A stretch of 59,860 nucleotides of DNA. Origin: Promethearchaeota archaeon (GTDB taxonomy: Archaea; Asgardarchaeota; Lokiarchaeia; Sigyniarchaeales; SOKP01). The notes beneath the pieces were generated by a model. It did not search any database. It had not been told where the DNA came from and saw only the letters and a program-made list of their open reading frames with translations. The stretch covers positions 1 through 59,860 of the forward strand of contig JAGXNO010000021.1 in assembly GCA_019894975.1 (NCBI GenBank), given 5' to 3'. The stretch's first letter is position 1. Every line of letters starts with the position of its first letter. Made by a program: the position numbers and the translations under genes. Below, in pieces: positions 7,443 to 52,706 of the stretch.

Positions 7443-8360
7443 ATGACAGAAATACAACTTGATGATTATATAAAAGCAGGAAGAGGAGTTATTGCAGCGA
7501 AGAGATTAGCTAAAAGAATTGTTAATCCCGGAGTGCTTTTCTTAGAAATTGCAAATAGATGTGAGGAAGAAGTTATTAAAAGTGGATGTGAATTATCCTT
7601 TCCAATCAATATGTCCTTGGATGAAGTAGCTGCCCACTACAGTCCCCCCATTGATGATGAAATGAAGGTTCCTGAAAAAGGATTATTAAAAATCGATATT
7701 GGCGCTCATTTCAATGGTTATATTGCAGATTCTGCCTTTACTATTAATCTTGATGAAGATCCCAAACTTCAAAATTATGTATATGCTGCTAAAGAGGCAT
7801 TGGATGCGGCTATTGAACTTTTTAATCCTGGAATTAAATTATATGAACTAGGAGAAGCAATTGCTCAAAAAATTATGAATAGGGGATTAAGACCAATAAC
7901 TAATTTAGGTGGTCATGAGTTAAAACAATTTAATCTGCATGCAGGACCATTCATTCCAAATTATAAAGAAAAACTACATGATCAAATATTAAAAAAGGGC
8001 GATGCTTATGCTTGTGAACCGTTTGCTACATCTGGGGGGGGTAAAGTTGAAAATGGAATACATTCATATATCTATCGTTTTGTTAAAAGAGTAAAAAAAA
8101 ATATACCTTACGAAGACCAAGGATATATGAATAAAATCGAGAAGAATTTTAGCCAACTACCTTTTTCTCCTCGATGGATTGAAAAAAAAAATTTAATACC
8201 TAAAAATAAAATAGAAAGAACCATAAAAACATTTCTAGGAAGGAAGATCTTAGATAAATACCCCATTTTAATAGAAAAGAGTAGAGAACCCGTTGCTCAA
8301 GAAGAACACACAATAGTATTGGATATGGATGGGAATAAAATTGTCACTACCAGAGAATAA
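7443..8360 (+). CDS. map: Methionine aminopeptidase type II
   Basis: AAHYSP, KIDIGAHFNGYIADSA, NLGGH, EPFAT and EHT metal ligands. Confidence 0.95.
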   Translation: MTEIQLDDYIKAGRGVIAAKRLAKRIVNPGVLFLEIANRCEEEVIKSGCELSFPINMSLDEVAAHYSPPIDDEMKVPEKGLLKIDIGAHFNGYIADSAFTINLDEDPKLQNYVYAAKEALDAAIELFNPGIKLYELGEAIAQKIMNRGLRPITNLGGHELKQFNLHAGPFIPNYKEKLHDQILKKGDAYACEPFATSGGGKVENGIHSYIYRFVKRVKKNIPYEDQGYMNKIEKNFSQLPFSPRWIEKKNLIPKNKIERTIKTFLGRKILDKYPILIEKSREPVAQEEHTIVLDMDGNKIVTTRE

Positions 8361-9168
8361 ACTTGAAGGAAAAATATCTGCCATTATATTATGTGCTGGT
8401 GAAGGCAAAAGAATTAGTGGTTTTATTCAAAACATCCCCAAACCTTTGATTAATATAAAAGAAAAACCTCTTCTAATGCATATAATCTCAAATTTAAATA
8501 TAAAATTGCTTAAATCTATTATTATAATAACAGGACATCTAGGAGATGAGATTGAACAGTATGTCTCTTCAATTGAAAAGACAAATATTTCTCTCTACGA
8601 AAAAATAAAACTCATAGACTCAGGTGAAAATTATAAGAAGGGACCATTGTATTCTTTTCTTTCAATTACGATCGATAGAACGATCCTCAGAAGAAATAAA
8701 ATCTTTTTACTTATTCCAGGCGACACTTACTTCAACCCAGATATATTCCCCGAAATTTTTGATAAAATCTTAAGAGCTTTTGATGCATTTAAAACAAAAT
8801 CACTTATTTTCTATCAGAAAATACAGGGGAATCTCTTAAAATCAAAAGCAGACTATGAAAAGCGAATCTCAATTGTCAAGCTTGAACAGTTAAAATCAGA
8901 AGAAATTATTAAAGAAATTATACAAAAAAAAATATTTGAAATTGATGATGATGAAGAAGTCAATCAAATCCTTCCAATTATAGCATTCAATTATAAATTT
9001 GTTAATAGAATTATAGATGCAGAAAAAGAAATTTCTGTGAGTACAATCAGAGAAGCTGTTAACTATATTATCCAACAAAAAAAACATGTTTTTCATGCGA
9101 TTCCTATTAAATCTCACCATGAATTCTTTGATATCGATACGCAATCAGATTTAATAAATATTAGCTAA
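8329..9168 (+). CDS. Sugar-phosphate nucleotidyltransferase family protein
   Basis: AIILCAGEGKRI..IPKPL and FFDIDT motifs. Confidence 0.8.
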   Translation: MGIKLSLPENKLEGKISAIILCAGEGKRISGFIQNIPKPLINIKEKPLLMHIISNLNIKLLKSIIIITGHLGDEIEQYVSSIEKTNISLYEKIKLIDSGENYKKGPLYSFLSITIDRTILRRNKIFLLIPGDTYFNPDIFPEIFDKILRAFDAFKTKSLIFYQKIQGNLLKSKADYEKRISIVKLEQLKSEEIIKEIIQKKIFEIDDDEEVNQILPIIAFNYKFVNRIIDAEKEISVSTIREAVNYIIQQKKHVFHAIPIKSHHEFFDIDTQSDLINIS

Positions 9169-9176
9169 GAAAAAGA
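9169..9176 (-). terminator. U-rich terminator of the large ncRNA
   Basis: Minus strand reads UCUUUUUC immediately after the terminal stem. Confidence 0.5.
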
Positions 9177-9690
9177 GGACAATAGATGCTCCGATAATTC
9201 ATAGTATATTTGATTCAACGTAATTTATATATTGAAATCCCATGAAACATTTTTGTAATCGACACTTTCATTATTGAGAATCTTTTAATTAACACAATAG
9301 ATGTTATAGATTTAGTGTCTCGTGTATTTTTAATTTAAACTCAATTTTCGCAACCTAATCTTCAATGTGTTAAAGTTTCGAAGGATAGTCTTACTAAATA
9401 TACAAATCCGAAGCATTACTTAAACAACTGCTCCAAAGTGCTATCTGTAGTAATTGTATCACAGAAGCTAAAGAAATGTTAAATCTTCTGTATTTTTGTT
9501 TAAAGCACTGTAGGAACATTAACTATGTTTGAAATTTTTACTAAAATATGATGTACTTCTTAAACTCGCTTATATTGAAAATAAAATATTGTCGGCAAAA
9601 AAGGAATCAGCGCATATGGAGTAAACAACTTAATTTGTGTTTGAACCGTAATAACGTATCTAATTCCAATGCAATATTGACCTATTGTCC
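9177..9690 (-). ncRNA. Large structured non-coding RNA (~514 nt), OLE-like
   Basis: Terminal stem GGACAAUAG/CUAUUGUCC, at least 8 internal helices, upstream TATA box, downstream U-tract, no credible ORF. Motifs UUACGGUUC, UUUUGCCGA and UAAGCGAGU resemble OLE RNA as recalled. Confidence 0.75.
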
Positions 9691-9713
9691 AACTAAATAT
9701 ATGAAATTTTGAA

Positions 9714-9721
9714 TATATAAA
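9714..9721 (-). promoter_or_regulatory. TATA box of the ncRNA
   Basis: TTTATATA on the minus strand 24-31 nt upstream of the predicted 5' G at 9690. Confidence 0.6.
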
Positions 9722-9807
9722 TCTTGTTATTAACGTTAATAAAAAATGCATCTTTAATTTGTTAATTAAAATAATATAAATATCTGTAATTACATTATTT
9801 ATAGAGT

Positions 9808-10197
9808 ATGAATAGTGATACAGGTATTATTGCCATAGAAATTGAATTATCCGGAATTGGTACAGTGGGTGGAGAAATTATCAGGCATATCGCCCCCCTT
9901 ACAGCAGACGTAATCATTGGAAAATTACCAATTAATAAGAGAGGAAGATTCAGTTTTGGTTCTAAGAATTATTGGACTCTCCCGGGTATGGGAATATACA
10001 AAGGTCCAAATCGAAAATCATTAAAAGATGTAGAAAAAGGAGACATTATATATAATCCTAAAACTGATGAATTGATAATACTTATTGAAAATACACAAAT
10101 GCCCAATAAAGTCAATAAAGTTGGAAAAGTGAATTCAAATCTAGAATTATTACTTAAAGGAAGAAATGGATTGAATACGAGAATACGAAAATCTTAA
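9808..10197 (+). CDS. Cyclophilin-like fold protein (TM1367/DUF369-like)
   Basis: RHIAPLT..I..KLP, VEKGDIIYNP and VNKVGKV patterns. Confidence 0.7.
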   Translation: MNSDTGIIAIEIELSGIGTVGGEIIRHIAPLTADVIIGKLPINKRGRFSFGSKNYWTLPGMGIYKGPNRKSLKDVEKGDIIYNPKTDELIILIENTQMPNKVNKVGKVNSNLELLLKGRNGLNTRIRKS

Positions 10198-10201
10198 TAA
10201 T

Positions 10202-52605: not shown

Positions 52606-52706
52606 TGGCCCGGGGGGGATTTGAACCCTCGATTTCCATTGTGAAACACGATTTCACATTTCTGGCTTCGCAAGCCAGCGCCCTATCCAAGCTGGACTAC
52701 CAGGCC
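52606..52706 (-). tRNA. tRNA-Arg(GCG) with a 26-nt intron at position 45/46 (52634-52659)
   Basis: Acceptor GGCCTGG/CCGGGCC-A, anticodon arm CTGGC-TTGCGAA-GCCAG, T-loop TTCAAAT; 75 nt after removing the intron; CCA not encoded. Confidence 0.92.

Follow-up and report, generated by a model that had tools for sequence, protein, structure and literature searches.

Two plus-strand genes of a Promethearchaeota archaeon, one nucleotidyltransferase-like and one cyclophilin-like, are separated by 639 nt without a gene (positions 9169-9807), and the question is what this gap holds. All positions refer to the window, which is the whole stretch of 59,860 nucleotides that was analysed. Based on the letters of the DNA, the sequence-only reading had described a gap of about 640 nt and an independently transcribed, highly structured minus-strand ncRNA of about 514 nt in it, which it took for either an archaeal OLE homologue or a new large RNA class. 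The gap is as described, and the minus-strand ncRNA gene in an archaeon is borne out by the promoter, the +1 G, a covarying terminal helix (P1), the G.U strand bias, the T-tract, RNA contigs that do not extend beyond the locus and the absence of any conserved ORF. We show that the gene encodes a previously undescribed, abundant, single-copy and lineage-specific ncRNA of 350-630 nt (514 nt here), which is confined to one Promethearchaeota family of the Loki-type Asgard archaea. It has its own strong TATA/BRE promoter, a conserved G start and an oligo-T end, and its ends are closed by a helix of 10-15 bp. The coordinates of the features are collected in Table 1.

Table 1. Features of the ncRNA locus and its neighbours, in window coordinates
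Feature	Position	Strand	Remarks
Nucleotidyltransferase-like gene	8329-9168	+	279-aa MobA/sugar-phosphate nucleotidyltransferase-like protein
Cyclophilin-like gene	9808-10197	+	129-aa protein
ncRNA gene, ~514 nt	9177..9690	-	73 distinct homologues, RNA contigs, without conserved ORF
Upstream promoter block TTAATAACAAGA	9722..9733	-	family consensus TTAATAA.AAGA, directly 5' of the TATA box
TATA box TTTATATA	9721-9714	-	-31 to -24 from G 9690
P1 5' strand GGACAAUAGG	9681..9690	-	paired in 97% of family cells
5' block UUGCAUUGGAAUUAGAUAC, first CAUUGG copy	9656..9674	-	CATTGG at least 90% conserved
Internal U-rich tract, degenerate here (UAUUUUAUUUU)	9578..9588	-	broken as U4 A U4 in the window copy
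P5 5' strands UGUUCC (9518-9513) and AGUGC (9509-9505)	9505..9518	-	78-81% of cells paired
P5 3' strands GCACU (9441-9437) and GGAGCA (9434-9429)	9429..9441	-	pairs with 9505..9518
CGAGAC block	9317..9322	-	G, A and C are invariant columns in the 73-sequence alignment
3' domain	9177..9273	-	sequence-conserved; GGAGCUUUGAUU (AAGUGUCGAUU here), second CAUUGG, AAUCGGAGC
P1 3' strand UCUAUUGUCC	9177..9186	-	CUAUUGUCC invariant or nearly so
T-rich terminator tract UCUUUUUCUU	9167..9176	-	directly after the P1 3' arm

Promoter, ends and transcript of the RNA gene

On the minus strand the TATA box TTTATATA (9721-9714) is followed, after 23 nt, by GGACAATAGG (9690-9681), and the 5' end of the RNA was placed at G 9690 from the promoter geometry. 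Among 73 sequences of the family the TATA box has the consensus TTTAAATA, with positions that are 90-100% conserved. It ends 24 nt 5' of the start, where +1 is a G in 71 of the 73 sequences and -1 is a T in 61. Every copy read on the minus strand also contains the promoter block TTAATAA.AAGATTTAAATA, which is a putative BRE-like element. At the far end TCTATTGTCC (9186-9177) runs into TCTTTTTCTT, and the longest T-run that lies within 16 nt past GUCC has a median length of 9 (range 4-14, 73 sequences). The 3' end of the RNA is probably a few nt inside this T-tract, near 9170. GGAYAAUAG at the 5' end, and CUAUUGUCC followed by a T-run at the 3' end, occur in every copy. An independent archaeal ncRNA gene is expected to have a correctly spaced TATA/BRE promoter, a conserved start site and an oligo-T terminator, and all of these are present here. 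The sequence-only reading had placed the TATA box 24-31 nt upstream and a U-tract just downstream; both were found again (TTTATATA and the T-rich 9176-9167), and its coordinates for the RNA ends, the TATA box and the U-tract were exact.

The nucleotidyltransferase-like gene is convergent with the RNA gene, and 2 nt of its stop codon (9166-9168) lie within the terminator tract; the two genes end tail to tail without a spacer. As listed, the nucleotidyltransferase-like ORF (8329-9168) also overlaps an M24 peptidase-like ORF (7443-8360) by 32 nt, and its true start may lie further downstream than 8329. On the other side of the RNA gene, the cyclophilin-like gene has a conserved TATAAATA at 9775-9782. 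This element ends 25 nt before the ATG (9808), and therefore the cyclophilin-like mRNA is probably leaderless or nearly so. The two promoters stand back to back and share a region of 118 nt, which is the best-conserved DNA of the locus. Neither flanking gene is RNA-related.

The two ends of the RNA are complementary, with GGACAAUAG (9690-9682) pairing with CUAUUGUCC (9185-9177). A terminal inverted repeat of 9 nt alone is unremarkable, being one of 15 such pairs in 1.4 kb. Pairing and compensatory changes in P1 were counted on the alignment of the 73 distinct homologues. Pair 10 is GC in 32, UA in 30, AU in 3, GU in 3 and UG in 2 sequences, and pair 4 is CG in 55, UG in 8 and UA in 1. The changes at pair 10 follow the genera, with G-C in the genus of the window, U-A in genera g14, g23 and g13 and A-U in g16, while the variants C-G, U.G and U-A of pair 4 are seen as GGAUAAUAGU/ACUAUUAUCC. 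In 59 of 59 full-length folds P1 has a pair probability of 0.98. For transcripts that start a few bases earlier, the leader pairs in some lineages with the first bases past GUCC, including the start of the T-tract (GAAAAGGACAAU/AUUGUCCUUUUC, GGAGGAUAAUAGG/CCUAUUGUCCUCU and GGAUGGAUAAUAGG/CCUAUUGUCCAUC). The terminal helix is established by covariation, and the perfect pairing of the ends that had been noted in this one copy is a helix of the whole family. We rejected a conformational switch in which an internal AAUAGG pairs with the 3' CCUAUU, as it has a pair probability of 0.02 versus 0.98 for P1, and the covariation of pair 10 follows P1 instead.

In the helices tested, 411 cells are G.U and 137 are A.C. 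Two U.G pairs are invariant and would be C.A mismatches on the opposite strand. The earlier argument from wobble pairs for the minus strand is therefore upheld by these counts, and the promoter and the T-tract agree with it.

Six RNA libraries contain part of the 1.8-kb stretch around the locus. Contigs from four RNA libraries, which belong to three metatranscriptome studies, were placed on 8400-10200, and all of them lie within 9188-9674 only, as those of a discrete transcript would. Their lengths are 483 nt (9192-9674), 387 nt (9188-9575, depth 303), 343, 265 and 151 nt and they stop 11-29 nt inside the predicted ends, where the contigs show neither strand nor exact ends and where depth and contig ends are not taken as an expression rank or an end map. 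The RNA contigs have no loose ends and no joints, and their cover over both flanking genes is zero. In DNA runs, 90-100% of the sampled words were contained across the whole 1.8-kb stretch. Because the flanks are silent in the RNA contigs, carry-over of DNA is argued against.

Conservation and structure of the RNA family

In a DNA search of relatives, each of the 24 genomes sampled from the window's own genus contained the locus region. Using tblastn with both flanking proteins, we recovered the arrangement of the two genes seen in the window at 21 loci, where the gap is 480-640 nt long and free of ORFs. Blocks of the gap DNA have a column identity of 70-84%, while the nucleotidyltransferase protein is only 33-52% identical. 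Across 24 syntenic copies no reading frame is shared in place or in frame. The locus is conserved in eight genera, and 24 syntenic copies have no reading frame in common, as is expected for an ncRNA gene. In total, 73 distinct homologues were collected, and they covary in P1 and P5.

The covariance model R1, which was built on the 3' domain, scores the window copy with 77 bits (E = 7.5e-15) and finds one locus per genome in 90 out of 131 genomes of the family. By genus, the matches are in 47 of 52, 37 of 42, 5 of 8 and 1 of 1 genomes in four genera. The model has no match in three sister families of the order, and the RNA was not found in the sister family f2. The RNA lies between the same two genes in the genera g1, g14, g16 and g23. 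In g12, g13, g15 and g18 these genes enclose an ORF-free gap of 620-740 nt, which is occupied by a diverged RNA with the same ends. This diverged form has the same promoter, the 5' GGAYAAUAG...GCAUUGG and the 3' CUAUURUCC with a T-run, and its interior is different. Outside this family, the cyclophilin-like gene is flanked by different genes and the gap is absent.

We scanned 400 genomes of the phylum with a pattern made of the TATA box, the spacing, the 5' end and GCAWTG. This promoter-plus-5'-end pattern occurs in 61 of 134 family genomes, in eight genera, and in none of 266 genomes belonging to 32 other families, and no match was obtained with the reversed pattern as a control. Searching species-representative genomes with a pattern for the 3' end gave 51 records; about 40 of these are MAGs that carry the name Promethearchaeota, Promethearchaeia or another Asgard name. 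The remaining records are scattered bacteria, at about the number expected by chance.

The transcript had been called highly structured, which is too strong for the window copy. The minus strand of 9177-9690 has a minimum free energy of -92.9 kcal/mol versus -87.9 +/- 5.9 for shuffles (z = -0.85, and -0.5 in a second test), and the plus strand has a z of +0.57. Over the family the folding z is negative in 17 of 17 homologues tested, with a mean of -2.5 and a range of -0.4 to -7.6, and the window copy is among the weakest. The gap has a G+C content of 26%, which is not above that of its surroundings, and the family RNAs have 26-29%. Taken together, eight helices have 85.7% of their cells paired versus 39-49% with partners slid, and their covariation score is 0.123 versus 0.084 for shuffles, a value that none of 500 shuffles reach. 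Most of this signal comes from P1 and P5. In P5 both sides change in 7 of 11 pairs, with compensatory changes from G-C to A-U and from C-G to U-A in L009 and L018. The helices of the 3' domain (GCUUUGAUU/AAUCGGAGC and two inner stems) are paired in 91% of cells, and no measure is above shuffles for them. The consensus folding energy is weak, and the alignment is uncertain outside P1 and P5.

Most of the internal helices that had been read from the window copy are not conserved. The helix 9504-17/9430-42 stands in part, as GUUCC/GGAGC and GUGC/GCAC around an internal loop, and for 9665-72/9612-20 the paired share of family cells is 54%. The window copy carries an ACAGAAG/CUUCUGU hairpin insertion, common to few relatives only; the helix 9485-91/9461-67 exists in the subset of homologues carrying that insertion and is absent from the others. 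The remaining four (9409-16/9186-93, 9396-9403/9204-11, 9375-86/9237-48 and 9366-73/9289-96) pair in the window, but in the family only 35-46% of their cells are paired, which is the level of the slid control.

Consensus folds of six subclades share P1, a 5' hairpin, a hairpin with a U-rich loop, P5, a second U-loop hairpin and the 3' domain. In these folds the 5' hairpin is tipped by a short stem, CGGU/ACCG or ACAG/CUGU, and the second U-loop hairpin sits just before the invariant GAGAC. Throughout the family, the paired ends and the promoter are kept, together with a GCAUUGG close to the 5' end, a CGGNG ahead of the 3' arm and the U-tract at about nt 96. The second CAUUGG, three GGAGC and GAGAC are additionally kept in the four best-sampled genera, and the 5' CAUUGG block is retained even in the diverged genera g12, g13, g15 and g17. 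Within its own genus the window copy is an outlier which has lost the family motifs ACACCG and AUAGGAGC; ACACCG reads ACACAA and AUAGGAGCUUUGAUU reads AUGAAAGUGUCGAUU.

The internal U-tract is a run of at least five T in 72 of the 73 homologues, with a median start at nt 96 and a median length of 8, and the run is also at its place in the diverged genera. It is usually found in a hairpin loop, the stem of which is lineage-specific (CCGA/UCGG, GUGAC/GUUCAC or UCUGG/CCAGA). Thus a U-rich single-stranded site between stems, which is the form of an Sm/Lsm site, is present in 72 of the 73 homologues.

Comparison with known RNAs

OLE RNA is an ornate RNA of about 600 nt in Bacillota, which works with OapA, OapB and OapC at the membrane. 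The RNA described here is similar to OLE RNA (RF01071) in being large (about 500-600 nt in this comparison), abundant and lineage-restricted, with a gene of its own, and the sequence-only reading had named short motifs of OLE in the same order. Using cmscan, no match to OLE or to another relevant Rfam family was found in 8900-10000 at E<=10, none to RF01071 (gathering score 50 bits) in the whole genome at E<=10, and none to any Rfam family in 12 homologues from four genera at E<=1. The 14 control genomes hold no OLE, and the search for RF01071 is thus one without a positive control. Of the four motifs cited as OLE-like, UAAGCGAGU (9572-64) falls where the family alignment is variable. The genes on either side are unrelated and are not oapA, oapB and oapC, the host belongs to Promethearchaeota and not to Bacillota, and a G+C content of 26-29% with sparse covariation, little of it beyond two helices, is unlike an ornate RNA. 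There is next to no chance that this RNA is an archaeal homologue of OLE, and of the two identities that had been offered it is the new large RNA class that stands.

The archaeal RNase P and SRP RNAs are likewise stable RNAs with their own promoters. That the present RNA is neither of them had been concluded from missing signatures, and it is confirmed by the location of both on other contigs of the genome, with RNase P RNA on contig 86 (132 bits) and SRP RNA on contig 175 (56 bits), both at a G+C of 46-47%. The SRP RNA (contig 175: 9948-10242) scores below the Rfam gathering score of 96.5 and yet matches the model over its full length. In this lineage the SRP RNA has diverged, and routine annotation would miss it. 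A search of the assembly with one primer-site motif gave no 16S gene.

The large RNAs GOLLD, ROOL, HEARO and raiA were also found by conservation in an intergenic gap. They have a rich structure that covaries strongly and are frequently associated with phages or mobile elements, whereas the present RNA is chromosomal, syntenic and single-copy and has no match to their models. Sm-class snRNAs, Y RNA, 7SK and the SRP Alu domain have paired ends closing the 5' and 3' sides and an oligo-U tail at the 3' end, as the present RNA does, and are abundant and stable. The U-tract between stems would further resemble the Sm site of the snRNAs (purine, A/C, U7-12, G/A). In contrast to snRNAs and Y RNAs, the present RNA is 2-4 times longer and has no similarity to them in sequence or in Rfam models.

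The only Rfam match of the window is a tRNA at 52606-52706 on the minus strand, which spans 101 nt for a model of 71 positions (49 bits) and is probably an intron-containing tRNA gene. At the locus itself, ARAGORN detected no tRNA or tmRNA in 9000-9900. A multi-intron tRNA was rejected, as the RNA contigs have no joints, there is no T-arm and ARAGORN made no call. Weak snoRNA-like matches at 8937-9007 are due to chance, as they lie inside the GAUGAUGA coding repeat of the neighbouring gene. In the full-text literature no description of the present RNA was found.

Possible roles of the RNA

The explanation that we favour, and hold to be slightly better than an even bet, is that this undescribed single-family ncRNA acts in trans as a scaffold or sequestering RNA through the proteins bound to it. 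The closed ends and the 3' U-tail would make the RNA stable. Its interior would be AU-rich and only moderately folded, with selection acting mostly on sequence and not on helices; the kept sequence would comprise two CAUUGG, three GGAGC, the invariant GAGAC and a U7-12 tract flanked by stems at about nt 96. Since the interior is conserved mostly as sequence, we read the RNA as working via bound proteins. A U-tract between stems and a 3' U-tail are the kind of site bound by Sm-like proteins, and both tracts would be likely candidate sites for Sm-like (Lsm) proteins here. A search of the genome for trans targets by complementarity (blastn-short) gave only matches at chance level, with sense equal to antisense.

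LSM-domain genes are present in all genomes searched, with four matches in the genome of the window. It is possible, albeit improbable, that the RNA forms the core of an Asgard-specific Sm/Lsm-type RNP that is snRNA-like, in which the U-tract would be the Sm site and the paired ends with the U-tail a stability module. If this is true, a large and abundant snRNA-like particle would exist in a close prokaryotic relative of eukaryotes. RNA-bearing genomes of the family mostly have 4 LSM-domain matches, versus 3 in the five sister-family genomes sampled. An extra Lsm paralogue as a family-specific partner was considered, and 4 versus 3 matches are too weak to use.

Other explanations can be weighed against a protein-bound scaffold. 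The least improbable of them, which we nevertheless regard as unlikely, is a two-part unit in which a conserved 5' domain, about 100 nt long, stops at the U-tract and yields a short RNA by default, with conditional read-through to the full length, as in an attenuator or a riboswitch. The fixed place of the T-run in nearly all homologues and in the diverged genera speaks for it, as does the deep contig of 387 nt, which ends at 9575 just after the tract. According to PMC8716108, oligo-U tracts terminate transcription in archaea; an internal U8 tract should therefore do so, and the full-length RNA may be one of two products. However, P1 is a covarying helix between the 5' end and the distant 3' end, and selection therefore acts on the full-length RNA; the contigs of 483 nt and 343 nt also cross the tract, and contig ends are not RNA ends. 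A core that performs catalysis or binds a ligand, within a large structured RNA, would account for the size, the closing helix, the invariant short blocks such as GAGAC and the negative folding z of all 17 homologues, but we doubt it: the G+C is far from the 46-47% of RNase P and SRP RNAs in the same genome, the consensus folding energy is weak, the best-conserved domain has no covariation and the interior is replaced in sister genera. Low G+C, a replaceable interior and conservation of sequence over pairing would suit a stable RNA recognised by proteins better than a compact catalytic fold.

The RNA could also act in cis, or through its divergent promoter, on its neighbours and chiefly on the cyclophilin-like gene 118 nt away. 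Two observations speak for it: the order of nucleotidyltransferase, RNA and cyclophilin-like gene is fixed across the family, and no DNA of the locus is better conserved than the promoter region between the latter two. Yet the RNA overlaps no coding region except for 2 nt of a stop codon under the terminator, interference between promoters needs less than a 500-nt RNA with conserved paired ends, and the RNA contigs show an abundant RNA but no sign of its neighbours. We give action in cis a low probability. Very improbable is a last group of readings, in which the locus is the mRNA of a very small protein, regulatory DNA that is not transcribed, or a mobile element bounded by terminal inverted repeats. 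The window copy does have ORFs of 41-63 codons, but no ORF is conserved in the 24 syntenic copies and the translations are of low complexity. The RNA contigs show that the unit is transcribed, against regulatory DNA. The ends are inverted repeats as in a mobile element, but the gene is single-copy, with no second copy of 9177-9690 in its own genome and one locus per genome in the family.

The reach of the finding is limited by the confinement of the RNA to one family and by the lack of a match in sister family f2. To our knowledge, large ncRNAs of unknown function are few and almost all bacterial, and we know of no archaeal RNA of such size that has been described beyond rRNA, RNase P RNA and SRP RNA. 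The present RNA is conserved, and it is abundant in sediment metatranscriptomes of three studies. Its sharply defined ends, promoter and terminator make it open to probing, pull-down and modelling. The host phylum comprises the archaea closest to eukaryotes, in which RNA-protein machines are of special evolutionary interest.
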